Source: a virus (lineage: Duplodnaviria > Heunggongvirae > Uroviricota > Caudoviricetes). From it: a stretch of DNA of 64,000 bases. The notes beneath the pieces were generated by a model. That model searched no databases. It had not been told where the DNA came from and worked only from the letters and a program-made list of their open reading frames with translations. Below, piece after piece: positions 10,519 to 51,400 of the stretch. Each line of letters opens with the position of its first letter. Position 1 is the stretch's first letter. A program made the translations under genes and the position numbers. The stretch is taken from IMG/VR virus record IMGVR_UViG_3300029720_000461; one strand, 5' to 3'.

Positions 10519-10523
10519 AGATT

Positions 10524-11933: not shown

Positions 11934-11939
11934 TCGGTG

Positions 11940-13131: not shown

Positions 13132-13178
13132 GTAAATCCTATAAAAACCCGGATATACATTAGAATTAAGTATTATTT

Positions 13179-13251: not shown

Positions 13252-13494
13252 CTTAATCCGGTACAGGATGCAGATTATAAAAGCAGAATTGTATTGGATA
13301 TCAGTGGAAATCTGAATTATTAAGTGCAATATGTAATGGGACAACGTATTGTATGATAGCTGTGATAATCAGTATTTGCGAACAAAGAACGATGGGAAAA
13401 ACATGTCAGCAGGTGCAGGGTAAGTGTGCATAGCTTATCACAGAGGTTTCGATACCAAAGGGCATGTTTTCGTTCATTCCCGAAAGGAGAAGAT

Positions 13495-23833: not shown

Positions 23834-24361
23834 ATGGAAGATAATAAATTTACTGAACAACTATCAGGGCATGATACAACAATAACTGAAGATAAAATGG
23901 CACATTGTAAAGCTGTGGCAGAGCATATGAAGAAGGTTGCCAAGATACAGGGGAAAGATGACCTGACGGCTGATATATATTATGTAGTGGGGCTGCTGCA
24001 TGATATTGGATATCTAAGAGGCAGAAAAGAGCATGAAATAAATGGTGCGGTTATTTTAAAAGCAATGGGAATGAAAGATGAGTATGCACAGGCAATACTT
24101 AATCATGGAACTAATCCATATACTTTAAAGACAAATGAACAGACTGACATATTAATAGCATTGCAGGATGCTGATATGAGTGTAGATAAGTACGGTAGGG
24201 ATGCAGGCTTTAAGAAACGTCTTGAGGATATTAAATTAAGATACGGTGCTGATAGTGAAGCTTATGATACCGCCACCAAAACAGTTCAGTTCCTTAAAGA
24301 AAAATATAATGATGAACAGTCAAAGTCTATGAAAAGATATAGTAATTATGAAAGAATATAA
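23834..24361 (+). CDS. HD-domain phosphohydrolase
   Basis: H...HD motif: HCKAVAEHM ... GLLHDIGY ... NHG; ends YSNYERI. Confidence 0.6.
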   Translation: MEDNKFTEQLSGHDTTITEDKMAHCKAVAEHMKKVAKIQGKDDLTADIYYVVGLLHDIGYLRGRKEHEINGAVILKAMGMKDEYAQAILNHGTNPYTLKTNEQTDILIALQDADMSVDKYGRDAGFKKRLEDIKLRYGADSEAYDTATKTVQFLKEKYNDEQSKSMKRYSNYERI

Positions 24362-29600: not shown

Positions 29601-29610
29601 AGCATATTAT

Positions 29611-29639
29611 TTGACATGTGTATTTACATGTGATATATT
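29611..29639 (+). promoter_or_regulatory. putative sigma70-type promoter
   Basis: ttgaca-17 bp-tatatt upstream of the 29693 gene. Confidence 0.4.
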
Positions 29640-29692
29640 AAAAATATATTATAACGCTGTATACAAATAACTTTGTTTAAGAGGAATTAATT

Positions 29693-30304
29693 ATGTTAAT
29701 GATTATAACAGGAAAAAGTGCAAGTGGAAAAGACACCATAAAGAAAGAATTAGTAAAAAAGGATTATGAGCCTGTATTAAGCCTGACTACAAGGCAGCCA
29801 AGAGAAGGTGAAAAGTACGGGTTAGATTATATATACACAGTAAACGAATATTTTGAAAGCTTATTAGAGCAGGATAAATTATATGAAAGCAGAAAAGCAG
29901 GAAATATATATTATGGTACATTAAAATCAGACCTTGATATGGTAAAGCATAATCCTGAAAAAAATTATATAATGATAAAAGACCTTGAAGGTGCTGAAGA
30001 TATAATTGACTATATAGGGCAGAAGAATGTATTTGTCGCATACATAGATGTATCAGATGATATAAGAAAGAAAAGAGCATCTATACGCAATGATTTTTCT
30101 GAAGAGAAATGGAATGAAAGGCTTGAATCGGATAATAAGCAGTTCACACATGAAAATATAGACAAAGTAGTTGATGTAATCTTTTATAACAATAAGGATA
30201 TGGACAATCTGGTAAAGGATATAGATGAAACTATGAGCAGGATAAAAGCTAATATATCAGTACCAAAAGGAAGATTCAGAGACACATTTGATAGAGAACT
30301 ATAA
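29693..30304 (+). CDS. guanylate-kinase-like nucleoside-monophosphate kinase
   Basis: P-loop ITGKSASGKDT; GMP-binding-like LTTRQPREGEKYGLDYIY. Confidence 0.6.
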   Translation: MLMIITGKSASGKDTIKKELVKKDYEPVLSLTTRQPREGEKYGLDYIYTVNEYFESLLEQDKLYESRKAGNIYYGTLKSDLDMVKHNPEKNYIMIKDLEGAEDIIDYIGQKNVFVAYIDVSDDIRKKRASIRNDFSEEKWNERLESDNKQFTHENIDKVVDVIFYNNKDMDNLVKDIDETMSRIKANISVPKGRFRDTFDREL

Positions 30305-30495
30305 AAATTAAATATATAACCTAAAAAAGCCTTTTTGCAATATTTTGTAGAAGGGCTTTTATTATAATGTAAGTACAAAAAATAATAGGAGTAATTATGA
30401 CCGTTTTAAAGCCGGTGTGATTAGGAATCCTAAATTATTAAAAAACAGAATGAAAAATATTGAAAGGTAAATGATTATAGCTAAAGGAGAGAAAT

Positions 30496-30792
30496 ATGTT
30501 AAATAAAGAAGTATTTGAAAAGTATGGAACAGAAAACTGGGTTATAGAAGAAAACTTATGTTATCTTTTACAAAAGTATGCGGAAAAGTTAGGAGTCTCA
30601 AATCCATATAATCCGGTAACATTTGTAAAGGATTTTATGAAAGAAGAGACTTATGTAAATACTGAATATGCTGAAATGAGTGCCATTGATACGGCAAAGA
30701 AGAATATTGTAGCTGATTATATAGAAGGGGAATATAAAGAATCAACAAATAAAAGCTTCAGGAGAGATTCTTATGCAGATAAATGTAGATAA
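30496..30792 (+). CDS. hypothetical protein
   Basis: 98-aa ORF with AAAGGAGAGAAAT RBS. Confidence 0.45.
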   Translation: MLNKEVFEKYGTENWVIEENLCYLLQKYAEKLGVSNPYNPVTFVKDFMKEETYVNTEYAEMSAIDTAKKNIVADYIEGEYKESTNKSFRRDSYADKCR

Positions 30793-31069
30793 AGAAGATA
30801 TAATTAATATGATAAAAGGCGGTGGAACTCATGGCAGTTATTTATGGCTTAACTGGCTCGAAAGTAATGGCTATGTACGCTACTATGACCAATACAGTAA
30901 AATGGACTGGAATGAGGAAAATCTTCGTAAGCTGAGTATAGAAGAATTATATGAATTATATATAGATATGAAAACTAAAGATAAGTGTGATAGACCATTT
31001 CCGGTAAAAGAAACTGATGGAACTGAAGGAATGGCGACAGCTGCACTTCTTCAATTTTTGAATAAATAA
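30773..31069 (+). CDS. hypothetical protein
   Basis: 98-aa ORF overlapping the upstream gene's end. Confidence 0.4.
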   Translation: MQINVDKEDIINMIKGGGTHGSYLWLNWLESNGYVRYYDQYSKMDWNEENLRKLSIEELYELYIDMKTKDKCDRPFPVKETDGTEGMATAALLQFLNK

Positions 31070-31238
31070 TATTATTTTTATTTCTAAATATTATAAAAAG
31101 ACTTTTTTATAATATAAAGAAAGCAAGCATATGATAAACTCCATATGTACTAATAAGTAAACATTAGTACAAACATTAATAAAACAAAAAAGGAAGGATT
31201 TTTAAAGATATCTCTTTAAAAAGCAAGGTAAAAGAAAC

Positions 31239-32798
31239 ATGGGAATTGGAATTACTATTGGAGTTGTAGCAGTTGTATTAATTGCGTTATTATTTGCAAG
31301 TTATATTAAAGCTCCGACAGACAAGGCACTTATTGTATCAGGACTTAGAAAGACACCTAAGTATGTAATTGGAAGGTCATCACTTAAGATACCATTTTTA
31401 CAGAGAGTTGATAAACTTGATTTAAAGATGATTTCCGTTGATGTTAAGACAAAGGAATCAGTACCAACAAATGAGTATATCAATGTTAATATTGATTCTG
31501 CTGTAAAGATTAAGGTTGGTTCATCACCTGAAATGCTTGGAAAGGCTGCAAGTAACTTCCTTAATAAGAACTCAGATTATATCAGAGAATCAGTTGTAGA
31601 TGTGCTTGAAGGTAATGTCCGTGAAATTATAGGACAGATGAAGCTTGAGGATATTGTACAGGACAGAAAGTTATTTGCTGAAAAGGTACAGGAGAATGCT
31701 GCTCCTGATATGGAAAGAATGGGTCTTGAAATTGTAAGCTTTAATGTTCAGAATGTTACTGATGAAGGTAATGTTATTGAAAACCTTGGTATTGACAGGG
31801 TTGTAAGTATCAGTAAGTCAGCACAGATATCAAGAGCAGAATCAGAAAGAGATATTGCAGTTGCAAAAGCTAATGCTGAAAAGCAGGCTAATGATGCAAG
31901 GATTGAAGCTGAGACAGCTATTGCAGAAAGAAATAACGAACTTGAGATTAAGAAGCAGGAATTAAAGAGAGCAGCAGATGTCAAGAAGGCTGAAGCTGAT
32001 GCGGCATATGAAATCCAGCAGCAGGAACAGAGAAAGACAATTGAAATCACTACTGCCAATGCTAATATTGCAAAGCAGGAGAAAGAGATTGAATTAAGAG
32101 AAAAGGAAATCACTGTTAAGGAAAAGACACTTGATGCTGATATCCGTAAGCAGGCTGAAGCTGAAAAGTATGCAGCACAGCAGAAGGCAGATGCAGAACT
32201 TTATCAGAGACAGAAGGAAGCAGAAGCAAAGCAGTTTGAAATTCAGAAGCAGGCTGAAGCCAAGAAATCACAGGCAGAAGCAGACAGATTTGCTAAGGAG
32301 CAGGAAGCTGAAGCAGTTAAGGCACAGGGCTTTGCTGAAGCAGAGAGTATTAAGGCTAAGGGTGTTGCTGATGCTGAAAGTATTAAAGCAAAGGGATTAG
32401 CTGAAGCTGAAGCTATGGAGAAGAAAGCAGATGCCATGTCTAAGTATGGTAAAGCTGCCATGACTGAAATGATTATCAAGGTACTTCCTGAGATGGCAGG
32501 AGCTATTGCAAAGCCATTAGAAGCTATTGATAAGGTAACAATTATTGACAGTGGTAATGGAGAAACCGGAGTAGGTTCATTCAGTGGTAATGTACCATCA
32601 GTACTTGCTAAGACAATTGAATCCGTTAAGGAAACAACCGGTTTTGACCTTACAGAAGTCATGAAGGCTAATACATATGATGCCAAGACTACTAAGAATG
32701 TGAATTTTACAGGACTTCCGGAAGATGCTGACCCGGAGATTAAGGTAACTGTAAAGAATATTCCTGAAAAGGTATCTAAAACAGAAAAGAATAAGTAA
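31239..32798 (+). CDS. flotillin / SPFH (band-7) family membrane protein
   Basis: N-terminal TM then SPFH-like region (KALIVSGLRK...VDVKT) and long EA-rich coiled coil typical of FloT/YuaG. Confidence 0.7.
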   Translation: MGIGITIGVVAVVLIALLFASYIKAPTDKALIVSGLRKTPKYVIGRSSLKIPFLQRVDKLDLKMISVDVKTKESVPTNEYINVNIDSAVKIKVGSSPEMLGKAASNFLNKNSDYIRESVVDVLEGNVREIIGQMKLEDIVQDRKLFAEKVQENAAPDMERMGLEIVSFNVQNVTDEGNVIENLGIDRVVSISKSAQISRAESERDIAVAKANAEKQANDARIEAETAIAERNNELEIKKQELKRAADVKKAEADAAYEIQQQEQRKTIEITTANANIAKQEKEIELREKEITVKEKTLDADIRKQAEAEKYAAQQKADAELYQRQKEAEAKQFEIQKQAEAKKSQAEADRFAKEQEAEAVKAQGFAEAESIKAKGVADAESIKAKGLAEAEAMEKKADAMSKYGKAAMTEMIIKVLPEMAGAIAKPLEAIDKVTIIDSGNGETGVGSFSGNVPSVLAKTIESVKETTGFDLTEVMKANTYDAKTTKNVNFTGLPEDADPEIKVTVKNIPEKVSKTEKNK

Positions 32799-36104: not shown

Positions 36105-36527
36105 ATGTTAGAACCAATCACATTACACGAACTTGAAAATTTTTTAGGAGCATTAGCCGGTGTTGCAGAACCTTCTAAGATTATTATTGAAGAAATTCCA
36201 CTTGAAAAAGTAAAGCACTGCAATCACTGTAACAATTGTAAGACAGCTCCAAAGCAACAACCCGAAGCATTGTCACCTGTGAAGAATGTTATTTTTGATG
36301 CACCTTACACAACTGTTATATGGAAAGATGGTACAAGAACTATATCAAAGTGGCATGGTGAAGGCTTTAATAAGTATGCAGGTTTTACCGCATGTATTGC
36401 CAAGAAGTATCTTGGAACATCACTTTTTAAGCAGGAACTTTCAAGGTGGTGCAAAGACACAAAGGAAGATATGAATAAAGATGCATCCGGTTTTTCAGAG
36501 TATTTAAAGGCAATTGATATAAGATGA
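36105..36527 (+). CDS. hypothetical protein
   Basis: 140-aa ORF with AAAGGAAGGAA RBS. Confidence 0.5.
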   Translation: MLEPITLHELENFLGALAGVAEPSKIIIEEIPLEKVKHCNHCNNCKTAPKQQPEALSPVKNVIFDAPYTTVIWKDGTRTISKWHGEGFNKYAGFTACIAKKYLGTSLFKQELSRWCKDTKEDMNKDASGFSEYLKAIDIR

Positions 36528-37252
36528 AAAGAACCAATTATACAGTATTAAAAATAGTAGCAGTACTTACCATGATTGCAGGAGATATGGGATATCTGTT
36601 TATACATTATTTAAGTGATACATGGATAATGATTATGGCTGCGGTGGGAAATTTATCTTTCCCACTGTTTGCCTTTATGCTCACAGAAAGTTTTTTAAGA
36701 TGCAGGAATAAGAACAGATACAAGTATAAATTAATTACACTTATATTATTAGCGGTATTAAGTGAAATACCATTCAACATATTTGTATCAGGCATGTGGA
36801 AATATCCTTTTAAAAACAATGTGTGTTTCACACTTTTTTTAGGATTCCTTATGCTCATATTGCTTGATAAAGACTGGCTGCAAATATGCAGATATTTTAA
36901 AAAGCATAAGAAGCTAAAAAAAATATACAGTTTTTTAATTAAAACAGTAATAACAAGTACATTTATGCTTGTAAATTATTTGTTGTGCAATGATTATTCA
37001 TATACAGGAATACTTCTTATAGCACTTTTTTATTTGTTTAGAAATCATAAGCTGTTAAGGGCGGTACTGCCACTTTTAATACTTATTATATCTGAAGCAA
37101 ATATTCTTTATATACCGGTCATTATTGATATGATTCTAATAGCAATATATGACAGCAAAGATGTAAATATGCCAAAGCCTTTTAAATACGGATTAAGATG
37201 TATATATCCGGTGATGTTAAGCATTATGGCAGTCATAAGTAAAATAATTTAA
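36524..37252 (+). CDS. polytopic membrane protein, TraX-like
   Basis: About 7 TM helices; N-terminus LKIVAVLTMIAGDMGYLF resembles the TraX-family start (LK.IA...M..DH.G). Confidence 0.35.
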   Translation: MKRTNYTVLKIVAVLTMIAGDMGYLFIHYLSDTWIMIMAAVGNLSFPLFAFMLTESFLRCRNKNRYKYKLITLILLAVLSEIPFNIFVSGMWKYPFKNNVCFTLFLGFLMLILLDKDWLQICRYFKKHKKLKKIYSFLIKTVITSTFMLVNYLLCNDYSYTGILLIALFYLFRNHKLLRAVLPLLILIISEANILYIPVIIDMILIAIYDSKDVNMPKPFKYGLRCIYPVMLSIMAVISKII

Positions 37253-38466: not shown

Positions 38467-39645
38467 ATGTTTGATAAGAAAAATAAAACATCTGATACAA
38501 AAGAAAATTCAACAGACAAGGAATTTGCAGCATTAAAAGAAAAAGACAAAAACAATCAGCAGGATAAAATGTCTATTGAAGAATTAATTAACAACATAAA
38601 AGATACATTATTTATAGAACTTACAGAAGAGATGAATGATGATTCAATTACTGATATAGAATGGGATGGTGACTGTCTATGGCTTAAACAGATAGGCACA
38701 GGATGTTATTTATCGCCTAAAAAGTTGTCAAAAAATTATGTTGATAACTTGGCAATCCGTTTAAGTAATATCATGGGAAGAAATTTCAATCAGGCAAACC
38801 CTGTACTGGAAGCAGATACAAAAACACTCCGTATATCAATTACACATGAAAGCAGAAGTGGGAAAAAATCAATTACAATCAGAAAGCTGCCGGTTGTAAT
38901 GAGATACGGACATGAAGATTTGGTAAATGCAGGAACTATTCCTGAAAAGCTTCTGAATCTTTTAGAAAACTGTGTAATAGCACACTGCACCGTGCTGATA
39001 GGTGGTACACCACAGGCAGGAAAGACAGAACTGCTTAAATACCTTACCAACTTTATACCGGCAAATGAAAAGGTTATGACAATTGAAGATAATTCAGAGA
39101 TTCATTATAAGGAGCTTCATCCAAATAAAAACTGTACGCCGTTTATCGTTGATAAAAGGTTTGGATACTCAGAGGCTATCAAGATGTCTTTAAGGCATAA
39201 CACCGACTGGGTACTGATTTCAGAATCACGAGGCAAAGAAGTTAAGGAACTGATTAACGTACTCAATACAGGTCTGCATTGTATGACAACCCTTCATCTT
39301 GATGAAGTAAGTGATATACCTGACAGATTATTTAGTATGCTTGAAGACCAGAAGAACAGCAGATTTATTGATAACGTATATAAATACATTGATGTTGGAC
39401 TTGTAATTGCTGTTGATAAAAAGCAGGAAAGAAAAATTATTGATTTTGGCTTTTTTGAGCGTAATGAAACAGGCAATCATTACAGACCTTTTTATAACAT
39501 AGATGACGGAGTAATTCCTGAAAAGGACATGCTTCCTGAAAACATGAAGAAGATATTTAAAAGGGCGGGAATAGATAATCCATATGAAAGACCAAAAGCT
39601 TGTGCAGGAGCAATACCGGTAGAAAAGGAAAGGAGTGCTGAGTAA
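38467..39645 (+). CDS. CpaF/TadA/VirB11-family secretion ATPase
   Basis: Walker A GGTPQAGKTE; TIEDNSEI (Asp box); His-box-like region; family-typical N-terminal domain. Confidence 0.7.
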   Translation: MFDKKNKTSDTKENSTDKEFAALKEKDKNNQQDKMSIEELINNIKDTLFIELTEEMNDDSITDIEWDGDCLWLKQIGTGCYLSPKKLSKNYVDNLAIRLSNIMGRNFNQANPVLEADTKTLRISITHESRSGKKSITIRKLPVVMRYGHEDLVNAGTIPEKLLNLLENCVIAHCTVLIGGTPQAGKTELLKYLTNFIPANEKVMTIEDNSEIHYKELHPNKNCTPFIVDKRFGYSEAIKMSLRHNTDWVLISESRGKEVKELINVLNTGLHCMTTLHLDEVSDIPDRLFSMLEDQKNSRFIDNVYKYIDVGLVIAVDKKQERKIIDFGFFERNETGNHYRPFYNIDDGVIPEKDMLPENMKKIFKRAGIDNPYERPKACAGAIPVEKERSAE

Positions 39646-41201
39646 TGGAAGGAAATATAAAAACAACATATGATAATGATAAAAAGCCTAATCTGTTTGA
39701 AGAAAAACTGGTGCAGATATTACATTATTTTTCATTCAAGCAAATGAAGAAAGATATCTATGATTACGGATACAGCATTTCACCTTTTAAATATTTCCTT
39801 GGATTTGTGGTCGGAATAATTCTTGTTGCAGCATACTGTATATTCAGTAAGCTTGATTTTGTATACATAATATTTGAAATTGTACTTCTGATATGCCTTA
39901 TGCCATTTATAGTAAGAACGAAATTTAAAGGAATGTATCAGGAAAAAAGATTTAATGAAGTTGATATATACCTGCATCAGATGATTTTTTCATTTCAGAA
40001 GCAGCCTAAAATATTATCTTCATTGGAAGATACAGAGAAGGTAAGTACAGGAAAGTTAAAAAATGTAATAAGAAAAGCAATAATCTGTTTAAGACAGACA
40101 GAAGCAGCGGATGCATATGAAGAAGCTCTTGATATCATATACAAGGCATATCCAAATGACCGAATAAAAAACTTAAATAAGTTTATGATACAGATTGAAA
40201 GACAGGGCGGTAATTATGGAACTTCACTTGATATTCTGCTAGGGGATATTGATAACTGGGTAAACAGAACATATAAGGAACAGACAACTGTTAAAACAAT
40301 AAAGACCACGATTGTTATAGGAACAATAATAAGTTTTATCATTTCCAGTGCAAGTATGATATTTTCAATAATAATACATTACAATGATACCATGTCAATT
40401 ATGAGTTTAGGAAATCTTGAAGACATATTATTATATCAGGTAACTACTGCTATATTTATAGCCGCAAGTATGCTGTTTTTAATATATGCCTTTACAAAAT
40501 ATAATTATGACTGGATTACAAAATCGGTTGATGAAAAAAGCGTTCTAAGAAATTACAAAAACGCAACAGACTTTAATCCGACAGTTTTCAGAATAAAAAG
40601 CATTCCTGTATATCTTGTATTTGCGTCTGTGTCATTGTCAATGTTTTTTATTAATGCAGTACCGTACAACAAAGGAATATCTGTATTTTTAGGTATATTT
40701 ACATTTTATCTTATAATCAGTCCGTCATTTACCAAAAAGAGTGCTTATAAGATAACACAGAAAAATATACAGAACTCATTTTCAGAGTGGTTGAGAGATG
40801 TATCAATTAATCTTCAGAGAGAACCGTTATTATCAGCTGTAACAGACAGCTATGAAAACTGTCCTGTCGCAATAAAGCCGGAGCTTGAAATATTTATCAG
40901 ACGAATACAGGAAGAGCCTACGGCAGTTGAACCGTATTATGAGTTCTTGGCTAGATTTCATTTAACTGATGTATCAAGTGCCGTGCGAAATCTTTATTCA
41001 TTGTCAGATATGGATGATGAACGTAAGGAAGAAAACCTTGGACAGCTCACAAAGCGTAATTATGCAATAATTAATGACAATGAGATAAAATCAATGAATG
41101 ACACAACATCTGCAATGCGTTTTTCTGAATACATACCAGTGTTTATTGCATGTGGAAAGCTTGCATTTGATATTATGAATCTTTTGGAATGTATGATGTA
41201 A
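39645..41201 (+). CDS. TadB/TadC-like (T2SS-F family) polytopic membrane protein
   Basis: 518 aa, several TM-helix clusters, directly downstream of and coupled to the CpaF-like ATPase. Confidence 0.45.
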   Translation: MEGNIKTTYDNDKKPNLFEEKLVQILHYFSFKQMKKDIYDYGYSISPFKYFLGFVVGIILVAAYCIFSKLDFVYIIFEIVLLICLMPFIVRTKFKGMYQEKRFNEVDIYLHQMIFSFQKQPKILSSLEDTEKVSTGKLKNVIRKAIICLRQTEAADAYEEALDIIYKAYPNDRIKNLNKFMIQIERQGGNYGTSLDILLGDIDNWVNRTYKEQTTVKTIKTTIVIGTIISFIISSASMIFSIIIHYNDTMSIMSLGNLEDILLYQVTTAIFIAASMLFLIYAFTKYNYDWITKSVDEKSVLRNYKNATDFNPTVFRIKSIPVYLVFASVSLSMFFINAVPYNKGISVFLGIFTFYLIISPSFTKKSAYKITQKNIQNSFSEWLRDVSINLQREPLLSAVTDSYENCPVAIKPELEIFIRRIQEEPTAVEPYYEFLARFHLTDVSSAVRNLYSLSDMDDERKEENLGQLTKRNYAIINDNEIKSMNDTTSAMRFSEYIPVFIACGKLAFDIMNLLECMM

Positions 41202-41217
41202 AGGAGTGAACAGATTT

Positions 41218-41325
41218 ATGGATGAGATTATAGAGCTTTATGGAGATTTTATACTTGGAATTATGGGGCTTGTAACACCGATAACAATATTTTCATTTGC
41301 ATTATTTAAGGTGCTTATGGCATAG
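41218..41325 (+). CDS. mini-pilin-like hydrophobic peptide (35 aa)
   Basis: MDEIIELYGDFILGIMGLVTPITIFSFALFKVLMA; AAAGGAG RBS; Flp-pilin-like size and position. Confidence 0.4.
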   Translation: MDEIIELYGDFILGIMGLVTPITIFSFALFKVLMA

Positions 41326-41339
41326 GGGGAAGAAACAAT

Positions 41340-41477
41340 ATGGGTGAAATAATTGATGTATATGGTGATGCAATAAAAGTATTTTTTGGAGTAGCATTAG
41401 CAGGCGGTTTAATGGCTGCCTGCGGCTACCTTTATGGGCAGACAATTACAAATGTATTTACGGCATTACTAGGCTAA
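41340..41477 (+). CDS. mini-pilin-like hydrophobic peptide (45 aa), paralog of preceding
   Basis: MGEIIDVYGDAIKVFFGVALAGGLMAACGY...; shares the (D/G)EIIxxYGD N-terminus with the 41218 peptide. Confidence 0.4.
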   Translation: MGEIIDVYGDAIKVFFGVALAGGLMAACGYLYGQTITNVFTALLG

Positions 41478-41502
41478 TTAAGCGGAAAAAGGAAGAATAA
41501 TT

Positions 41503-42072
41503 ATGAAAATAGTATTAGAATCAAGCATATATGCCATATTTCTTGCAATCATATGTTTTATAAGCTGTGACCTTATAATGATGAATATGAAGGTATCAAA
41601 GGTAAATGAAGATGTACAGTATGTAGAAAATTATATTGAAGCATATGGAACAGCAGAAACAGAAAATGATAAAAAAATATATGTATGGTATAAAGCAGAT
41701 GAAAACGGAAATACAGTATATGAAACTGTAAAAAGTAACGGAAAAGATGTAACAAGACCGGCAGTATTATATAAAGGCATGGCTGCGGATTCATATGAGG
41801 CACAGTATAAGGCTTATATCAACAGCACTGTAAAAGCAGAATATAGAAACAACATAAATACCAAAGGTATTCCCATGCTTAAGGAAGACGCTCTTGCAGC
41901 TTTGCAGGAAGTATTAAAGAAAAACGGAATGGAGCTTAATATAAAGTATATAGACGAAACAAACTCATATGTGTATATGGAATATACGGTAAGCTACAGG
42001 CTGTCAAGTGGATTCATTAAATATAATAAAGTACATAATTATACAGGGATTGCAAGATTTTCAGCGGTATAG
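41503..42072 (+). CDS. TadE/TadG-like pseudopilin (N-terminal TM)
   Basis: N-terminal hydrophobic helix MKIVLESSIYAIFLAIICFISCDLIMM followed by a soluble domain. Confidence 0.4.
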   Translation: MKIVLESSIYAIFLAIICFISCDLIMMNMKVSKVNEDVQYVENYIEAYGTAETENDKKIYVWYKADENGNTVYETVKSNGKDVTRPAVLYKGMAADSYEAQYKAYINSTVKAEYRNNINTKGIPMLKEDALAALQEVLKKNGMELNIKYIDETNSYVYMEYTVSYRLSSGFIKYNKVHNYTGIARFSAV

Positions 42073-42101
42073 AATTAAGCGACCATTAAAAGGAGAAGAG
42101 T

Positions 42102-42596
42102 ATGAAACTTATTATGACATCAGGTGGGCTTATAGTGAGCATAATGCTGATAATTTTTATACATTTAACAGTAGTAAGTGACAATATTATTGAGCATGAA
42201 ACAAGCAGCTCACTTAATTCAAGTATGGATTATGCGTATGATAAAATGATGGATGATTATGAAGATATAAGCTTTGTAGAGTATTATAAATCACCATGTT
42301 TTGTATGGTTTGACAGTGATGGTTTTATTAAACATATATCTAAGGATAATACATATAATAATGCTACGGGTACATATTATGAAAAAGGTGAAGACGTTCT
42401 TACAGATGATTTAATGAAAAAATTCTGTGAAATACTACAGAGCCGTATAAAGAGTGAAAATTCAGAATTGACAGTACAGCTTGTGTATAGGGATTTTGAT
42501 ACCGGTACAATGCAGATAAGGGTAATTGAAAAATATACAACACCTGCACATGTAACTAAAAGCTGTTTTTTTGAAAAGACATATAGTTTGATATAA
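42102..42596 (+). CDS. TadE/TadG-like pseudopilin (N-terminal TM)
   Basis: N-terminal TM LIVSIMLIIFIHLTVV; size and position. Confidence 0.35.
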   Translation: MKLIMTSGGLIVSIMLIIFIHLTVVSDNIIEHETSSSLNSSMDYAYDKMMDDYEDISFVEYYKSPCFVWFDSDGFIKHISKDNTYNNATGTYYEKGEDVLTDDLMKKFCEILQSRIKSENSELTVQLVYRDFDTGTMQIRVIEKYTTPAHVTKSCFFEKTYSLI

Positions 42597-42775: not shown

Positions 42776-42804
42776 TTGACATGTACCGTAATAAGGTATA
42801 TAAT
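42776..42804 (+). promoter_or_regulatory. sigma70-type promoter (TTGACA-17-TATAAT)
   Basis: Perfect consensus hexamers; spacer contains ataaggta, also in the 53329 promoter. Confidence 0.6.
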
Positions 42805-42853: not shown

Positions 42854-43954
42854 ATGAGAAAGAACATATTTAAAACAACAGTAATAGCAATGGCAGTACT
42901 TACAGTAGCCTTTGGAATGACAGCCTGTGGTAATAAAAAGGCAGGTAACACTGATGCTACACAGGTTAAACAGGAACAGCCAAGTGTAGCTGATAATAAT
43001 AATACAGCTAAGACAAAGACAGGCATTGTAACATTTACAGCAACAGATACAGACGGTAATACTGTAACACTTGAGGGTAAAGCAGTAGTACAGGCAGATG
43101 GAAGTGCTGAAATAGAAGTTACTGACAATGCAGGTAATAAGGTGACATTCACAGGTAAGGGGAATGTTAAAGATGATAAGATTACTGTAACAGATGTGAA
43201 GGTAAAGGATGCAGGAACACTTGTAAAGGCAGATGGTACTGAAATCAAGATTACAACAGATACTAAGACTGAGAAAGCAGAAGAAAGCACTGGTAGTTCA
43301 GAAACTTCAGATGTAAAGGTATCAGAAGATGTAATTAAAGAAGTAGAGACAGCTAAGGAAGAAGAAAGCAAGGCTGATAACAATGTAATTGTAGGAGATA
43401 ATACTTCAGACAATAAGACTGATGTACCTGAACAGTCAGATAATGGTAGTTCAGATAATGGTACAGTAGAACCTACACCTGAACCTACTCCAGAGCCACA
43501 GCCTACTCCTGAACCAACACCTACACCAGTTGAACCTGAACCACAGCCAGAACCTACTCCTGAGCCAACACCTGAGCCAGAAGAACCTGATGTGCAGACT
43601 AAAACACCAGTATATTGTATGATGAATTTCAGAACAAGTGACGGATATGAAGATACAGAAGGTGGAGTTGGTGAATATATTTTTAAGAAATATATTAACG
43701 GTGAAATCACTGAATCAGAAGCAGAAAGCCTTATGCTTAACGGAGCATTAATTAATATTAAGGTAAGATATGATGACGGTTCAGAAGAAATAATTGATGA
43801 AATTAAACCTAAGTCAGTGAAAATGTATATTATAGATGATGATGAGGATGAAGGGGTTGGAAGCTGGCATATACCCGGATACACATATGTAGATTATTCT
43901 CGTTGGAGTACTTTACATGCTGAATATTATATCCTTATCTATTATGATATCTGA
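42854..43954 (+). CDS. lipoprotein with Pro/Thr/Glu-rich linker
   Basis: Lipobox AFGMTAC; (PTPE)n linker; AGGTAATTGAT RBS. Confidence 0.6.
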   Translation: MRKNIFKTTVIAMAVLTVAFGMTACGNKKAGNTDATQVKQEQPSVADNNNTAKTKTGIVTFTATDTDGNTVTLEGKAVVQADGSAEIEVTDNAGNKVTFTGKGNVKDDKITVTDVKVKDAGTLVKADGTEIKITTDTKTEKAEESTGSSETSDVKVSEDVIKEVETAKEEESKADNNVIVGDNTSDNKTDVPEQSDNGSSDNGTVEPTPEPTPEPQPTPEPTPTPVEPEPQPEPTPEPTPEPEEPDVQTKTPVYCMMNFRTSDGYEDTEGGVGEYIFKKYINGEITESEAESLMLNGALINIKVRYDDGSEEIIDEIKPKSVKMYIIDDDEDEGVGSWHIPGYTYVDYSRWSTLHAEYYILIYYDI

Positions 43955-44319
43955 TGAATAAATAGAATAATAATGAAACAATGAGACTGTCATAAATGCA
44001 GATTGCATAAATGGCAGTCTCTTGATAAAAAGATAATAGCAAAGGAGAATAACATTATGAGAAAAGCATATGGGAATATTATTTTAGAAGAAAGAAATTG
44101 GTAACTATACAGAAGTAGCATTTACTTATCTCAGACCATGATAGGCAAAATATATAAAACAATAAGTAAGGGGTTGTGAATCATCATAGCCCTTTATTTT
44201 TATATATGAGGGAATAATATTGTATAAAAAAATAATAAATAACACAAAATAACAGTATCTATTATTTATAACGTATGATAATATAATAGTGAAAAGAAGT
44301 GCTTATGGAGGTGATTGAC

Positions 44320-44478
44320 ATGATTAAAAGAAATGTTTTACCTATTAGAGTAGAATTACCTGTTATATCAGCAGAAAAAAGTGATTCTTTTATAAGGTTA
44401 GCAAATAAAACAAAATTAAGTAAACAATCATTAAAAAAATGTGCAAATACTCTTAATAAGTTTAATCGTGTAAAATGA
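44320..44478 (+). CDS. small putative antitoxin (DUF1778/RHH-like)
   Basis: 52 aa; ...SAEKSDSFIRLANKTKLSKQSLKK...; overlaps the downstream GNAT-like gene by 4 nt. Confidence 0.3.
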   Translation: MIKRNVLPIRVELPVISAEKSDSFIRLANKTKLSKQSLKKCANTLNKFNRVK

Positions 44479-45110
44479 TGAAAAATAGAAAATATATAGA
44501 TGATTTTAATTTTAATATAAGGATTTTTTCTGAAAAAGATAGGATTCTTGCTCAATCGTTTAATACTGGAAAAGAATATCCAGAAAAAGGAATTGGCGAC
44601 TATCTTAAGTCTGATGAAATTTTTAAAGATATGGCAAGTAGTGATGCAATAACATACATTGTAACATGCATCAATAAGATTAATGACACAGAAGAAATAG
44701 TTGCATATTTTTCTATAACGTCTTCATCTTTACCATATTTTTATAGAGATATTGATGATTCAGGAAATTATGTTATAAGCGATATTTTATGTGGAATATC
44801 AGCAATAAAAATTAATATGTTTGGAGTTGATTGTAAATTTCAAAATGTATTTTATAAAGATAGTATTGAAGAAAAGCCTGTATCAGCATGGATTTTTGAA
44901 GCTATTATTGGTATGATTGATGAAATGGCAACAAATACATTGGGAATAAAAGCAATTTACCTTCATACATTGCCTAGTGCTAAAGATTTTTATTGTAAAA
45001 ATTATATGAAGCCCGCAGGAAGTTATTTTTATCCATTAAGTGATAATGATGATGAATTAGAAATTCTCTATACACTAATTAGAGAAGTAAAAGGATTAAA
45101 TGGTAAATAA
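44475..45110 (+). CDS. GNAT-family acetyltransferase-like protein (possible TacT-like toxin)
   Basis: GNAT-like segments VAYFSITSS, GISAIKINMFGVDCKFQN, AIYLHTLPSAKDFYCKNYMKPA. Confidence 0.35.
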   Translation: MMKNRKYIDDFNFNIRIFSEKDRILAQSFNTGKEYPEKGIGDYLKSDEIFKDMASSDAITYIVTCINKINDTEEIVAYFSITSSSLPYFYRDIDDSGNYVISDILCGISAIKINMFGVDCKFQNVFYKDSIEEKPVSAWIFEAIIGMIDEMATNTLGIKAIYLHTLPSAKDFYCKNYMKPAGSYFYPLSDNDDELEILYTLIREVKGLNGK

Positions 45111-45126
45111 TATAAATTTTAGGCTG

Positions 45127-45166
45127 TCTGATTAATTTCAGGCAGTCTTTTTTTATGCTCTGAACA
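45127..45166 (+). terminator. rho-independent terminator
   Basis: aggctgtctgattaatttcaggcagtc + TTTTTTTAT. Confidence 0.5.
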
Positions 45167-45425
45167 ATAAAAAAGCCTTAATGCAACACATAAAGATACT
45201 AAAAAATGTAACATAACTATTATAGGCAGATATTTTTACATAAAATTCATCAAAAATGATTATAGTGTCTGTCATATATAAGATGTAGTAGTTGTAGGAA
45301 GATATTTTTAAAATAGATATGTAAATTTATCCCTTAAAAAATAATATCTTACACTATTATAATACAGGCTTAATATAGCCAAGTCAGCTAAGAGAAAGAC
45401 TTAGCAGGAAGGAGAAAGAGAGATT

Positions 45426-48400
45426 ATGAAATTAAAGAGAACTTTTAAGACACTGTTAATGATAATCGCAACAGTAATGAGTGTTGTATCAGGCATACTT
45501 ATTGATTCAGGAACACTTGCATATGCAGCCACGACTTATACCTTAACGCTTAACTGGGATGATGGTGTTGAATGGGTTGCTACTGATAAAGATGGTATTT
45601 ACAGGTGGGAAAAAGGCGGTTCAAAGACATTTCAGGCAGGTTCTAAGGCTTATACTTATGTCAAGCTTAAAAATGGTGCAACAGTCAAATCATTCTTTTC
45701 AAGGCAGGAAAATAAAGACTGGACTGATTATACATATACGTCAGGAAGCATATGCTATGATACATGGACAATGTACAATAACAGAAACGTGGACATATAT
45801 ACATCTGTATCATCTTCAGCAGATGTGTCTTATGACTGGGATAACCTCGTAACAAGCTCAAAACATTATCATTCAAGCAATGGAAATGAAGCATCTTGGA
45901 GTAATTTAAGGGATGACCTTGGAAGGTCTCCTGCACCGATTTATTCAATTTACTATAAGCTACAGGAAAATAGGTACAGGGAAACCTGCTATGGAGATAA
46001 TCAGGAAGATAAAGACTTCGGCGGTTATGAAATAATGTTAAGGACAGAAGACAGCCATAACAGTTATTGGTATGGACAGTCCTCATATGCAAATGGAGAT
46101 AGATTTGACGACTGGTACAGGGATGAATTTGAAGGAATAAAGCTTTCAAATCTTGCAATTGTACCTGTCCAGATAAAGGGAGATAAGTTTTTACAGATTA
46201 ACATAAGCGTTAAGAACACCAATTCATATGCAAAAGAAATATCACTGGCAACATGCAGTGATATACAGGTTGCAGATGATGATAATGCAGCTACATTCTT
46301 TAATGGTAACGGCTTTACAATGACAAACATGTACTGCGAAACATCAGACAATTATCATGGTGGCACAATTCCTGCGGCAACACTTAATGTATATGCGAAG
46401 GATGTACCGGGATATGTAACTGATGCGGATGCAGTATATATAGGACATTTTGTATACAGAAAAGAGCATGTATGGTTAAACAATGTACTTGGTGATAAGG
46501 CAACGAATTATAACAAGTATAAGCATGGCGGAACATCAGGAGAAGGTGAATTGGATTCAGGTTTTTCAATTGCATGGAAGAACAGAACAATTGCAGCAGG
46601 TCAGACACAGACTTACAGCTACATCATAGGCATAGGAAAGTACAATTCAGATAATAAGATAACATTTAATGCAAATGGTGGAGAATTAAAGACTCCGGGA
46701 ACAAGCATCAATAACCCAAGCGGAAATTACAGTAATAAAGTTACGGTAACATATGGTACAGATACATATTCATCAATGAGTAATGATATACCAGAAAGAG
46801 CAGGTTATACATTTGACGGATGGTGGACAACACCTAATGACAGCAATGCAAGCGTAATGGTATATGATGCATCAGGAAAATGTAATAATGACTGTAATTA
46901 TTGGAAAAATAATCAGTGGCAGGGAACTAATGATTTAACCGTATATGCACACTGGAAAGCAAACACATATACAGTACGTCTTAACACAGGCGATATCCCG
47001 TCATCAGAATTGACAAAACTGACAGAAACAGCATCAACTGAAGGATGGACATGGAATGAGAACGGCAGATATTTTTCAAAGGCATTTGTACAGAATGAAA
47101 ATAATTACCTTCCGGGAGTAAATAAGTTCTTCAGTGCTAATAATTATGAATCAGTAGGCAGTAAAGTAACAGACAAGTATTTTGTACAGGATAAGACAAA
47201 GAATCCTACCAAGGTATTGTATAACTGGTGGACATCAGCATCAGGTGGTACTGATATAGGCAGGGGAAAAAAGATTTATAACAACTTGTATGAGATATCA
47301 AAGGACAACAGTGGAATTGTTAATCTTTATCCGCACTGGATGGGATATACAACAGTGTTTAATTACACAGACAATGCCCCTGCTAATACAGCCGGTCTAA
47401 CGGTAACAATCAACAACAGCATTAATGATGGCATGGATAACTGTCTGTATCAGGTATATGGAAGCTGTTTCTTTTATAAGGGAACAGACGGCGAGTATCA
47501 CGATTATGAAGGTACAAATCCTGACTTAAAGGTAACAGCAAGTATTCCAGACAGTAACGGATATAAATACATCTTTAATGGCTGGCATCATAAAAACTGG
47601 AATTACCTTACAGATGGATTAGGAAAGCTTACATATAAGAATAATTATAATATCGGACAGGGTAAAACTTCATACAGTTTATCACCACATTTTTCAAGAG
47701 TAGGAATTAATTATAACGTAAGACTTAACGCAAATGTACCTGATACAGAAAGTACATTACAGGTACTACATCAGAATGGAATATCATCATACATTTACAA
47801 CAGCACTAGCAGATACTTTTCAAGAGAACTTACATATGATGATTCGCAGGATATGTTATCACCTGACGTATATTCACTTAAGGGATATCATTTGGTAAGC
47901 AGAAGTAACTGGTATACGGAAAAAACAGGTGGTAATACAGTATTAGCACCATGCAATAATACGGAAGCAGAATATCCGGACTGGGCTGAAAACAACTGGA
48001 ATCTTACAACTGAAGATGGAGCAACAGTAGACCTGTATGCAAGATGGCAGGCAAATAATTATAAGATAGCATACAACTTAGATGGTGGTACATATGGTAC
48101 ATCACATCCGACAAGTGCAGACTATGATACAATGGTAACAATAGATAACCCGTCAAAGGCAGGTTATACATTTACAGGATGGACAATTACAGGGTATGAC
48201 AGTACTGCTTCAGGACACAATGCATCTGCATGGACAGAAGAGACTGGTACATCTTATAAGAATTTAACTGCAACAGACGGAGCAACAGTTACATTTACTG
48301 CTACATGGAAAAAGGAAGCTCCTAAGACAGCTAATTTACAGACAACAGGTGATGTGGGAATAAAAGCAACATCACATTCTGATAAGACTGTTGTAAATAT

Positions 48401-51400
48401 TGGAAGCCATGTACAGGTAAGTGCAGTTCTTAATACCGGTTATGTATTTAAGGGATGGTACAATGGAAATGTTAAGGTATCTGATGATTTAAGCTTTGTA
48501 TATACAATGCCTAATAAAGATACGATACTTACAGCTAAGACAGAGATTAAATGGTATACAATGACATTTGACCCAAATGGCGGTATATTAAAGAATCCCG
48601 GTAATAATCTTTATAATGCAGAGTGGAAGAATGGAAACACCGTGTCAGTTGGATGGAATATAAACGACTTCTGTTACATGAATGGTGATATACCAACACG
48701 AAAAGGCTACAGATTTACAGGCTGGTATCTGGGAAGTGAAAGCGTATATAATAAGTACGGAATAGCAATAAAAAATTCAAGCCTTTACAGTTATGATACA
48801 GATTATCATTGGAGATATGATGGAAATGTAACAGTAAAAGCAGGATGGGATGCTATAAATTACAAGATATCATACAAAGTAGTCACTGGTGCAGGAAGCA
48901 TACCTTCACAGACAGTACATTATGGTGATTCATTCACATTGGCAGATGGAAATGCATTTACATATACAGGACATACATTTAGCCACTGGTATGTAAGACG
49001 AAGCTCTGATAAGAAAGTATTCTGTTATGATGGTAACTGGCATACTACAGATGGAAGTGACTTGTATGGTTCAGATGTTTCAAACTGGTATCCGTATAAT
49101 AATAGTGGACTTACATTTGAAATGAATGATTCATGGATAAGAAGTGACATAGATGCAGATGAAGAATTTGTTTTCTGGGGATTCTGGGCAGCAGATGAAT
49201 ATAATATCATTTATAACTTAAATGGTGGTACATTAAATGGTAAGACTAATCCAGATACTTATAATATAGAAACACCTACATTTACACTTAATAATCCAAC
49301 AAGAACAGGATATATATTTGCAGGATGGTGTGAAAGTAAAGATACATCATATGTATATAACAGAAATGCTAATGAAGTTATTAAAAAAGATGAGTCAGAT
49401 TCAACATCCTGCTTTATCCCTGAATGTTATGCGTCTTTAGATTACGCACCAGTATTTGACCCTGCATATTATCTTGCAAAATATCCGGATTTAAAATCGG
49501 CATACGGAGATGATGCAAATAAAGCATTAAGCCATTTTGTAAAGTACGGAATGAAAGAAGGTCGTCAGGGTTCAGCAGAATTTGAAGTGAATGCATATAA
49601 AGCCAAGTATAAAGATTTAAAAGATGCGTTTGGTGATAATTTGCCGAAATATTATATACACTATATACTGGCAGGCAAATCAGAAGGAAGAACGATATCA
49701 CAAGCATCAATTAGTATATATCAGGGAAGCATAGGTAACAGAACTTATACTGCTACATGGACACCTATTAATTATACAATCAACTATGACCTTAATGGTG
49801 GAACAGTTGCGGTAAGTAATCCTACAAGTTACAATATTGAAACACCTACATTTGCTCTTAATAATCCTATCAGATTAGGATATGTGTTTGCCGGATGGAC
49901 AGGCAGCAATGGTACTACACCACAGAAAAATGTAAGTATATATAAAGGCAGTACAGGAAACAAGTTTTATAAAGCTAACTGGACAGCGGCAGATGTAGGA
50001 TATACCGTTAATCATTATGTAATGGATATAAATGGTAATTATCCAAGTACACCTACAAAGACAGAAAGACTGTCAGGATTTACGGATACTTCAGTTACAG
50101 CAAAAAGATTAAGCCTTGGAAACGGATTTACTTATCCTGATGTACAGACTGTAAAAATAAAAGCAGATGGAACTACGGTAGTAAAATATTACTATACAAG
50201 AAACAAATACACATTAGACCTTAACGGACTTATAAATGGAACACTAAGGGGAAATCTTGTAGACGTAGTAAAAAATCCGATAACAGGAGCAGAAGACAGA
50301 CATACAGCCGGTACAGCGGTTGTTACTGTAAATGGAACTGTTGTAGGAAATAAAGTCACTGATTACTGTAATGAAGTTTACTATGGAAGCAGTATAAGCA
50401 TTATCACAACAGCTGAAAGCGGATATAATATTATTGATAACAGTAATGTAAACTTTAAAATGCCGGCTGAAGGCAAAACTGTAACAGTTACAATAAATGC
50501 AAAAGATACCAAGTATCTTGTAAGGCACTGGAAGAAAAATGTTAATACTGACAGTAAGACTTATAATGAAAACAGTTTAAATGACAGCAATTATACAATG
50601 TATGATGCTGAATATTTAAACGGCAAGGCATACAGCTGGGTAAAACCTGTTGTAAGGACACTGGAAGGATTTACATATAAAGGAGTTCTTCCAAGTGAAG
50701 GAACGGCTTATGTGAAGCCTGACGGTACAACAGTAATTGATGTGTATTATGCAAGAAATACATATACAATAAATGGTGGTAACGTAAATGCCAATGTTGA
50801 ATATGGTAACGGAATAAGCAGTGTAAGCGGATTAAAGACATATGAATATGAGCAGAAGGTAACACTTACGGCTAATTTAAAAACAGGATATCACTGGCAT
50901 GGTACAGATAAATGTGCTTCATCAGGTAAGTATCCTACAGGCTGGTATAGCAGAAACAATTCAGGTGTTGACGGCATCTTAACAGACAATACAACATATA
51001 ATTCACAGACAATTAAGTTTAATATGCCTGCAAGAAATGTTTATCTTGGAGTTAAGGCTACAAACAACAGCTATACGGTTGTATATAATAAAAATCAGCC
51101 GGTAGAGCCTAAGTCAATAAGTAACGTAACAGGAAGCACTGAAAGCCAGACATTTATTTATGATGAGAGTCAGAATTTAAGGAATAACGGATTTACTCTT
51201 ACAGGTTATACAAGAAAGTCAGGCTGGATGACAAAGCCAAGTAAGAACGGTAATGGAACAGCAGATTTTTCTTACGGACAGTCTGTAAAGAACCTTACAA
51301 CTGTTAATCTTGGTACGGTTAATCTTTATGCAATATGGGAAGACAATGCACCGGAAGAGATTAATATAAGCAGTACAAATAATTTTGCAGCCGCACAAAC

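Follow-up and report, generated by a model that had tools for sequence, protein, structure and literature searches.

A compact module related to type IV filament machines beside a giant surface protein on a megaplasmid-like element of Lachnospiraceae

Introduction

Machines that assemble type IV filaments are commonly described by a rule of four universal components: an ATPase, a platform protein, a pilin and a prepilin peptidase. Here we describe a locus whose closest described counterparts are the tight-adherence (Tad/Flp) pili, a gene cluster of the Enterococcus plasmids pMG1/pHTβ and, in function, the thin type IV pilus of IncI plasmids. It lies at positions 38467–42596 of a 64,000-nt stretch of DNA (the window) from the IMG/VR virus record IMGVR_UViG_3300029720_000461, which is filed under the Caudoviricetes. 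The window corresponds to about 138.9–202.9 kb of a 294 kb contig (ERZ28656368 scaffold_23), and coordinates are given in window numbering. With moderate confidence, we read the locus as a compact type IV filament machine of a monoderm host, belonging to an uncharacterised Lachnospiraceae-specific family related to the Tad and archaeal types, which presents an adhesin and is carried by a conjugative megaplasmid-like element. Six tightly packed open reading frames (ORFs), separated by −1 to 29 nt, make up the locus, all of them on the strand and at the positions that a first-pass annotation of the sequence had given:

38467–39645, + strand: ATPase, 392 amino acids (aa), Pfam T2SSE
39645–41201, + strand: fused double-T2SSF inner-membrane platform, TadB+TadC-like in a single chain, 518 aa
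41218–41325, + strand: mini-peptide 1 (mini1), 35 aa, MDEIIELYG followed by a single hydrophobic helix
41340–41477, + strand: mini-peptide 2 (mini2), 45 aa, MGEIIDVYG, a hydrophobic helix and the C-terminus …ALLG
41503–42072, + strand: N-anchored protein 1, 189 aa, MKIVLE…, Glu at residue 6
42102–42596, + strand: N-anchored protein 2, 164 aa, MKLIMT…, residue 6 not acidic

Like Tad/Flp loci, the module has an ATPase near the CpaF and archaeal types, a platform of two homologous T2SSF-type units, and predicted single-helix subunits of 35–65 aa in which an acidic residue, Tyr and Gly precede the hydrophobic helix, with larger N-anchored proteins following. An adhesive role would be a further likeness. 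Unlike in Tad/Flp loci, the platform units are fused (the T2SSF domains expected of TadB plus TadC are nevertheless present), the subunits have neither a leader nor the G/XXXXEY processing site, and RcpC, a TadE domain and, within the ~10 kb searched around the modules, TadV are missing, as is a ParA/MinD-like TadZ in or beside the module. The ATPase scores far under every curated TadA/CpaF cut-off, and canonical TadB/TadC lie beyond the reach of the platform profile. The first-pass annotation had proposed a tight-adherence pilus; what stands of this is a Tad-like type IV filament assembly locus, while membership of canonical Tad/Flp falls for lack of the processing site, TadV, TadZ and TadE. 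We also considered tad-like loci of Gram-positive bacteria that were described in 2011 as having no prepilin motifs; these differ in carrying tadV, tadZ and rcpC.

Among annotated plasmid genes, the nearest homologue of the ATPase is a 'CpaF/VirB11 family' gene of pMG1/pHTβ (28% identity over 87%). In pHTβ, a 1209-aa SpaA-type surface protein and small transmembrane proteins precede the ATPase, which is followed by two membrane proteins of ~270 aa, mini-transmembrane proteins, TrbC/VirB2, a CD1115-family VirD4 and a VirB6-like protein. This layout parallels that of the window, one of the mini-transmembrane proteins ends in …LG, and a VirD4 of the same CD1115 family is found on the window element. 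The two pHTβ membrane proteins are separate, however, and align with the fused platform collinearly but not significantly (hhalign E 0.009 and 0.024). The E-x-Y-G motif is missing from the small proteins of pHTβ, and its 120-aa protein did not match the anchored-protein profile. The pHTβ cluster sits among VirB2, VirD4 and VirB6-like genes, whereas the window module is ~44 kb from VirD4 and also occurs in chromosomes. The pELF tra system, a further candidate, proved unrelated.

IncI plasmids (R64, and TP114 with PilS/PilV) offer a functional analogy: a conjugative plasmid with a type IV secretion system (T4SS) plus a separate filament machine, whose minor pilins bear adhesins and which stabilises mating pairs both in liquid and in the gut. 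The accessory pilus of TP114 is reported to display adhesins and to aid transfer in the gut (PMC9045228). The IncI pilus differs in being a diderm type IVb system with a prepilin peptidase, a secretin and a shufflon-variable PilV, and shares no sequence kinship with the module beyond the superfamily.

Results and Discussion

The module across Lachnospiraceae

Searching the window proteins against the ORFs of 83 related loci identified the ATPase in all 83 (best E 3e-124) and the platform in 80 (best E 1.8e-109). The two co-occur in those 80 loci, and the co-location of a secretion ATPase with a T2SSF platform is one mark of the type IV filament superfamily. Homologues of anchored protein 1 were present in 44 of the 83 loci (E to 3e-23), always immediately after the mini-peptides, and those of anchored protein 2 in 55 (best E 1e-26). 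The gene order is fixed: usually a 53–65-aa peptide (the major-type peptide), then the ATPase, the fused platform, mini-peptides of 32–37 and 41–57 aa, and two N-anchored proteins of ~115–130 and ~130–140 aa, with a large secreted protein often next. Because it is kept in more than 80 independent loci, this arrangement is far beyond chance.

ATPase homologues with 50–54% identity occur in L. eligens, L. multipara, L. pectinoschiza, L. hominis, L. rogosae and L. intestinalis, and those with 38–45% identity in other Lachnospiraceae, including Faecalicatena, Lactonifactor and Lachnoclostridium. The module is found in the chromosomes of most Lachnospira species. In L. multipara it lies between citrate synthase, D-Ala-D-Ala ligase and pectate lyase genes on one side and PAP2 phosphatase and sugar kinase genes on the other, that is, in ordinary chromosome. 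The suggestion of the first-pass annotation that the element builds a surface system of its own thus gives way to a chromosomal system found throughout the Lachnospira lineage. We found no paper on this Lachnospiraceae module in a literature search.

Plasmid-like relatives of 55–58% identity, one of them from a bovine metagenome, have the whole module, including a peptide of the MHDIIEHYGK type, next to DNA polymerase III α, an actin-like ALP_N segregation protein and giant proteins with SpaA or thioester domains. In a neighbour-joining tree calculated without bootstrap, all plasmid-borne ATPases group together, and the chromosomal Lachnospira clade is their sister. As a separate observation, a PAP2-family phosphatase is a conserved downstream neighbour in Lachnospira chromosomes, in several clusters and dozens of loci (our loci L015–L049, at ~13.6–14.3 kb in locus coordinates, for example L019:13641–14231), and is not present on the plasmid version.

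The ATPase and the platform protein

The ATPase contains the motifs GGTPQAGKTE and TIEDNSEI, and the residues of its Walker A, Asp box, Walker B and His box are invariant across 17 homologues. It scored 71 bits against Pfam T2SSE (7e-20; cut-off 24.9). Its top matches in the PDB were the archaeal GspE 2oap (2.9e-18), CpaF of Caulobacter (1.5e-13), VirB11/Cagα (1.7e-11) and FlaI (3e-11). Against NCBIfam, it scored 93 bits with the TadA-family conjugal-transfer-associated ATPase TIGR03819 (1.4e-26; cut-off 373) and, nearly equal, 89 bits with VirB11 (2.1e-25; cut-off 250), followed by TrbB (3.9e-19) and ComGA (3.1e-13, 49 bits; cut-off 300). A grouping with packaging or unrelated AAA ATPases, which would have spoken against a filament locus, was not seen, the closest solved relatives being 2oap, CpaF, VirB11 and FlaI. 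Judged by these profile comparisons, the protein is a predicted motor of the secretion superfamily, from the TadA/VirB11/archaeal branch and outside every curated family.

Relative to its chromosomal homologues, the window ATPase has a K/E-rich N-terminal extension of ~45 aa. Such a Lys/Glu/Asp-rich extension was observed in plasmid-borne ATPases of 392–420 aa (window 38467–38600; loci L010, L100 and L101), and is missing from the chromosomal Lachnospira proteins of ~346 aa.

The nearly matching VirB11 and TrbB scores raise the alternative that the ATPase is a VirB11-type part of the element's own conjugative T4SS, and its membrane neighbours channel parts. The nearest annotated plasmid homologues, within the pHTβ/pMG1 T4SS operon, and the VirD4 and PrgI genes on the same contig also fit this idea. 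Yet the scores remain far under the VirB11 cut-offs, the partner is a T2SSF-type platform with pilin-like neighbours, and full chromosomal modules lie between housekeeping genes with no T4SS genes nearby, while the window module is ~44 kb from VirD4. We consider this alternative improbable.

No more credit is due to a DNA-uptake pseudopilus of the competence type, comparable to ComGA-GG or the Micrococcus transformation pili that depend on Flp. The order of ATPase, platform, small pilins and larger minor pilins does mimic comG operons, the ComGA profile matches weakly, and the host is a monoderm. But no ComEA, ComEC or ComC was present near any locus with precomputed Pfam annotation, the ATPase is nearer to the TadA, VirB11 and archaeal types than to ComGA, an association with giant adhesins is foreign to competence systems, and a conjugative plasmid profits little from DNA uptake by its host.

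The start of the platform gene overlaps the ATPase stop by 1 nt. Pfam T2SSF was barely passed (1e-5, 25.9 bits; cut-off 25.2) and covers a single domain, residues 116–234. The N- and C-terminal halves of the protein align as homologues (hhalign probability 86%, E 5e-6), and either half consists of two transmembrane helices followed by a helical domain; the domains are GspF/PilC-like. An AlphaFold2 model based on 39 homologues is confident (predicted local distance difference test, pLDDT, 82; predicted template modelling score, pTM, 0.72), and a Foldseek search with this model returned nothing significant. An exhaustive profile search retrieved 937 representatives at 50% identity, 423 of them with E ≤ 1e-30 and nearly all 450–530 aa long. 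The platform family is thus sizeable and always fused, and its profile stops short of canonical TadB/TadC. A tblastn search of the platform against PLSDB gave no match. Together, the internal duplication and the T2SSF domain bear out the earlier label of a fused TadB/C-like protein, and both T2SSE and T2SSF, proposed as checks for the ATPase and the polytopic protein, were found above their cut-offs.

Small peptides and N-anchored proteins

The two mini-ORFs, which had been called hydrophobic and mini-pilin-like, are genuine conserved genes. Hidden Markov models (HMMs) built from chromosomal mini-peptides only retrieved mini1 (3.4e-4 with the first model, m1, and 2.5e-9 with the second, m2) and mini2 (3.1e-6), and the window mini-ORFs were the top matches of these models. 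The mini-peptides were collected by positional extraction and HMMs, as a strict motif search had missed most of them. Mini1 has an AAGGAG motif 12 nt upstream and an in-frame stop 7 codons upstream; its sole alternative start, a GTG at 41206, falls within its own Shine-Dalgarno (SD) sequence, and the gene is already annotated in the ENA record. Mini2 has the SD-like sequence GGGGGAAG and lacks an alternative start, the frame being closed by a stop 10 codons upstream; its length and C-terminus are unchanged in the relatives of 66% identity and in Lachnospira. The anchored proteins, too, have in-frame stops upstream, at 7 codons for protein 1 and 4 codons for protein 2, and no alternative starts.

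The small proteins share an N-terminal pattern, M-x-x-Φ-Φ-(E/D)-x-Y-G followed by ~20 hydrophobic residues, exemplified by MHDIIEHYGKVVVALAGVLAAVLL… in Lachnospira and MKAFLEEYGVVVVAAIVIMIIVV…LG… in other genera. Glu or Asp occupies residue 6 in mini1, mini2, anchored protein 1 and 44 of 45 distinct major peptides (Glu in 43 of the 45), and Tyr8 and Gly9 are invariant in a 17-sequence alignment of major peptides (A6). All 45 have an SD-like motif at −18 to −4 of the proposed Met, and in 28 of them there is no upstream in-frame start. While their N-termini are strongly conserved, the C-termini of the major peptides vary, and one locus (L008) has three tandem paralogues. A conserved, sometimes tandemly duplicated subunit with a variable C-terminus is typical of exposed filament subunits.

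When the major-peptide profile was compared with 177,635 PDB sequences, the top two matches, both marginal, were Tad pilins: 8u1k, PilA of Caulobacter (E 0.098), and 8u2b, Flp (E 0.75). In this alignment, the x-Y-G of the peptides falls on E5-Y6-G7 of the mature pilin, and the downstream …LG… motif aligns as well. The weak Pfam matches of the peptides were to Arch_flagellin, Flp1_like and Flp_Fap, and to no others. At threshold, no Pfam family was obtained for mini1, mini2 or either anchored protein, which includes the Flp_Fap and TadE (PF07811) models that had been proposed as checks; PHROG and NCBIfam likewise contained no family for the anchored proteins. The N-terminal anchors noted by the first-pass annotation are present, but no family model backs its label 'TadE/G-like'. 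Anchored protein 2 has a ~30-aa insertion peculiar to the window lineage, and a homologue search for it yielded three close sequences only; the fold predicted from this shallow alignment is pilin-like in topology only.

Inspection of starts and stops showed no Flp leader or G/XXXXEY site in the window peptides, whose resemblance is to the mature Flp N-terminus only; the absence of this site had been named in advance as evidence against a canonical Tad/Flp pilus. A prepilin peptidase was also looked for. No Peptidase_A24 (TadV) domain was detected in the window ORFs scanned, in the flanks or within ~10 kb around related modules, although the host genome may encode one elsewhere. For polytopic ORFs near the modules, this check used 33 clusters, of which 15 representatives were scanned, together with precomputed Pfam annotation.

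As a best inference from marginal scores, the small peptides would be leaderless Flp-like pilins. Within this set, mini1 may be a leaderless minor pilin-like protein and mini2 a leaderless pilin-like protein that could serve as filament subunit in the window lineage, whereas anchored protein 1 would be minor-pilin-like and anchored protein 2 akin to a tip-type minor pilin. Alternatively, the peptides may be processed by a different peptidase that cleaves after the invariant Tyr-Gly.

A major-type gene is absent from the window and its 66% relatives and present in other plasmid-like and chromosomal copies. This could mean that the copy on the plasmid is decaying or no longer autonomous, a remnant which builds nothing after losing its major pilin gene. 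Its six intact, tightly packed ORFs with SD sites and the conserved catalytic residues of the ATPase say otherwise, and the same six-gene layout is kept in relatives of 66–78% identity, which implies purifying selection. In our judgement, there is little chance that the copy is defunct.

The giant surface protein and the downstream cassette

Two large genes for exported proteins follow the module:

42854–43954, + strand: lipoprotein, 366 aa, with the lipobox MTAC and a Pro/Thr/Glu-rich linker
45426–53267, + strand: giant secreted surface protein, 2613 aa, with Flg_new and Flg_new_2 domains (precomputed Pfam)

The giant protein starts with a Sec-type signal peptide and lacks any LPXTG-like motif. 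An ORF of at least 600 aa adjoins the module in 36 of the 64 loci with enough flanking sequence. In eight chromosomal loci, the gene that directly follows anchored protein 2 encodes a homologue of the giant itself, so that its link to the module is borne out; in L. hominis (L039), the shared part corresponds to residues 150–575 of the giant (E 1.8e-51). We infer that the giant is the cognate adhesin or a cargo of the module. The lipoprotein also has homologues just downstream of chromosomal modules (four loci, e.g., L081, L044 and L047; E to 1.5e-12). Upstream of its gene, at 42776–42804, is a 12/12 match to TTGACA-17-TATAAT, and the lipoprotein is probably a loosely linked accessory gene with its own promoter.

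These neighbours are also compatible with a device for secretion or wall crossing, in which a piston resembling the pseudopilus of type II secretion systems (T2SS) would push the giant, and perhaps the lipoprotein, through the peptidoglycan without forming an extended pilus. The large proteins with Sec signals and without LPXTG at 36 of 64 loci, the giant homologues directly downstream in eight, the missing major pilin gene of the window lineage, which fits a short pseudopilus, and a gene order that resembles pseudopilus operons are all in its favour. However, 28 of the 64 modules have no large neighbour, and the conserved, sometimes tandem major peptide of other copies, with its variable C-terminus, suits an exposed filament better. 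Moreover, we know of no T2SS-like secretion described in monoderms. Of the alternatives, we regard this one as unlikely rather than far-fetched.

On an 89 kb scaffold of a near-identical element (L002:14388–21179), with an identical ATPase and the same module, the downstream genes encode DUF3800 and a different large protein of 1390 aa, cut by the locus end. These genes replace those for the 52-aa, 211-aa and 2613-aa proteins of the window (42854–53267). Since a different large protein is found at the same place, the adhesin region is a variable, exchangeable cassette. The 211-aa protein, encoded between the lipoprotein and the giant at 44475–45110, is acetyltransferase-like (PHROG 1.6e-8) and does not accompany chromosomal modules; together with TraX, described below, it may modify surface components.

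Large secreted proteins next to chromosomal modules (L039:13654–15771, L029:14936–18367 and L024:13763–16795) have a conserved C-terminal segment, …IKIASS…W[YN]…C[VI]Q.W.I…, and no LPXTG. In the window giant, only the last residues look loosely similar to it. This segment may be a module-specific anchoring or docking domain.

Other genes of the window

Further features of the window had been named by the first-pass annotation, and were confirmed along with the Flg_new giant:

36524–37252: TraX acyltransferase-family membrane protein (Pfam 7e-19)
near the module: HTH_17 excisionase-type protein (Pfam 1e-9)
in the window: RuvC-like protein (PHROG 4.7e-12; Pfam merely 5e-4)
in the window: SLT transglycosylase (Pfam 1.9e-20)
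in the window: flotillin, 519 aa (precomputed Pfam)

A PDB sequence search with the RuvC-like protein gave no match. Among the 83 related loci, TraX, a 109-aa protein, the RuvC-like protein and the 211-aa protein had no homologues at all, and HTH_17 had one, unlinked to the module (E 0.005). The genes for TraX, the excisionase-type protein and the RuvC-like protein are therefore bystanders and not parts of the system: the module core is the six genes, and these three belong to the backbone of the element and its 66% relatives.

At 27765–32798, ~6–10 kb upstream of the module, we observed genes for a membrane-anchored EAL-domain protein, a phosphodiesterase of cyclic di-GMP (3.9e-58), a guanylate kinase and the flotillin. 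It is conceivable that the element controls adhesion through cyclic di-GMP.

Nature of the element

The element was inspected over ~82 kb (the window and 18 kb of flanks) of the contig of at least 294 kb, with ~60 ORFs compared to Pfam or PHROGs and the flanks covered by precomputed Pfam hits. Two ENA contigs, one of 294 kb and one of 89 kb, encode the ATPase, a cluster of 99%-identical ATPases reaches 476 kb, and a helicase gene near the window start also occurs on a 328 kb contig. The window has a G+C content of about 30%, nearly all genes are on the + strand, and the GC skew climbs steadily across it.

On the same 294 kb contig, 4.7–7.5 kb before the window start, is a gene for a VirD4-like coupling protein of 938 aa (L095:45–2861), which passes the NCBIfam model NF045973 of the CD1115 family (7e-93, 312 bits; cut-off 250). 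A PrgI-family protein (PF12666) is encoded ~2.7 kb upstream of the window (L095:4415–4852). PrgI is followed by five genes of unknown function, with VirB4, usually expected after PrgI, not among them. The window also encodes DUF932, SLT and TraX proteins, an integrase-like gene, RecD- and PIF1-type helicases and TnpB. No capsid, portal, terminase or tail family was detected in the ~60 ORFs or in the precomputed Pfam hits of the flanks. This gene set is the signature of a conjugative megaplasmid or of an element like an integrative and conjugative element (ICE), and by the evidence seen the element is no phage, in agreement with the earlier suspicion of a conjugative-type element.

That the element is nevertheless a huge phage or phage-plasmid, with a locus for host takeover, superinfection control or virion release, is in our view highly improbable. 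What recommends the idea are seven tRNA genes amid small one-strand ORFs, contigs of 294–476 kb, several PHROG matches (helicases, PARP-like and RuvC-like proteins) and a distant relative filed as 'Bacteriophage sp.'. It is contradicted by the lack of phage structural families in the ~82 kb and the presence of VirD4 and PrgI; in addition, searching IMG/VR with the ATPase brought up no relative, and the structural proteins of the module have no PHROG family. Furthermore, gut 'huge phages' without TerL have proved to be megaplasmids (PMC12934698). A megablast of 24 kb against GenBank phages gave a single 683-bp match.

The tRNA genes, namely Thr, Met, Pro, Phe, Lys and two whose anticodon loops are abnormal, occur one by one over 7250–13252, interspersed with small ORFs of unknown function, a PD-(D/E)XK nuclease and a PIN-domain protein; scattered tRNAs among small ORFs are the usual pattern of huge phages, found here on an element of conjugative type. 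At 16826–18712, a 628-aa protein combines a PARP catalytic domain (1.7e-22) with WGR; a bacterial mobile element thus encodes a poly(ADP-ribose) polymerase whose architecture resembles that of eukaryotes. The relative deposited as phage is MT835474.1, an 83 kb record from human faeces with 39% GC that is titled 'UNVERIFIED: Bacteriophage sp.'; at L013:21006–23835 it contains a related ATPase (1.3e-66) and fused platform (1.5e-34), and it may be another plasmid-like element deposited as a phage.

According to a 2026 preprint, 'huge phages' of the gut that lack TerL can be conjugative megaplasmids, named Hodors (PMC12934698). Like these, the window element would be a gut Bacillota element of >200 kb initially binned as a huge phage, with T4SS genes and a surface module with giant secreted proteins. 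We reject identity with Hodors, which have 44–47% GC, sortases and Sec genes and for which no pilus module was described (PMC12934698), unlike the window element with its ~30% GC and Tad-like module; no sortase was seen in the element region examined. Hodors are also reported to use an HD-type MOBH-like relaxase with a separate helicase (PMC12934698). The window has an HD-domain protein at 23834–24361 and two superfamily-1 helicases, one RecD-like at 2457–4160 and one PIF1-like with an N-terminal helix-turn-helix at 57043–58821, which, by parallel with Hodors, may form the missing relaxase module.

A model for the module

By analogy with characterised type IV filament machines, a hexameric ATPase would dock on the fused two-domain platform, and ATP-driven movement of the platform would extract small, leaderless, single-helix Flp-like subunits from the membrane. 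These subunits, with their Met-x-x-Φ-Φ-Glu-x-Tyr-Gly start and hydrophobic helix, would stack into a short pilus or pseudopilus, with the two larger N-anchored proteins serving as minor or tip pilins. No prepilin peptidase would be needed, because the subunits would be made without a class III leader. The window lineage, having no major pilin gene, would either polymerise mini2 or borrow the major pilin encoded by the host chromosome.

The carrier would be a conjugative megaplasmid-like element of a host related to Lachnospira, and the likeliest role of the machine would be to present or hold the Sec-exported, anchor-less giant adhesin beyond the thick wall. The outcome could be attachment between cells, stabilising mating pairs, or between cells and substrate, to the benefit of the plasmid, as with the IncI thin pilus. 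What the sequences show is the gene content with its homology and conservation, the lack of leaders and a conjugative setting; that filaments form, that no peptidase is needed, that the adhesin is presented and that mating is aided are proposals.

Several observations weigh against this model. There is no match above threshold to any curated model of a pilin, TadE or Flp, and the Flp matches in the PDB are marginal. The conserved Glu is at residue 6 rather than 5, and the Lachnospira type has a His-for-Glu shift relative to Flp. Charges flanking the helix, acidic at the N-terminal end and Lys-rich after it, appear to give no clear N-in topology such as pilins require. The lack of any prepilin peptidase covers ~10 kb around the modules only. 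Chromosomal copies are in non-mobile contexts, so that conjugation is not the primary role of the family, and the major-type peptide gene is missing from the window lineage and its 66% relatives only. Finally, the ~82 kb inspected showed no VirB4, relaxase or replication genes; besides VirD4, the conjugation-type parts seen there were PrgI and an SLT hydrolase.

A bolder version of the model, which we put forward tentatively and hold to be doubtful, is that the family is a new branch of type IV filaments, with Flp-like pilins that have no class III signal peptide and involve no prepilin peptidase. Its megaplasmid version, after loss of the major pilin, would contribute no more than its motor, platform, minor or tip pilins and giant adhesin, and would re-tip the pilus of the host or build a minimal one for mating or colonisation.

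Conclusions

Species of Lachnospira, such as L. eligens and its relatives, break down fibre in the human gut, where they are abundant and associated with health. To our knowledge, there is essentially no information on how they and their plasmids attach to substrates or to each other, and we are likewise aware of little understanding of conjugative adhesion in Gram-positive gut anaerobes. A filament-type module beside a giant adhesin on a conjugative element would provide a testable mating-pair mechanism for these bacteria. The element is also a further warning that gut 'huge phage' contigs without TerL can be conjugative megaplasmids. If true, leaderless assembly without a peptidase would break the rule of four universal components; leaderless subunits would then represent a novel way of assembling type IV filaments and a new target for work on colonisation.

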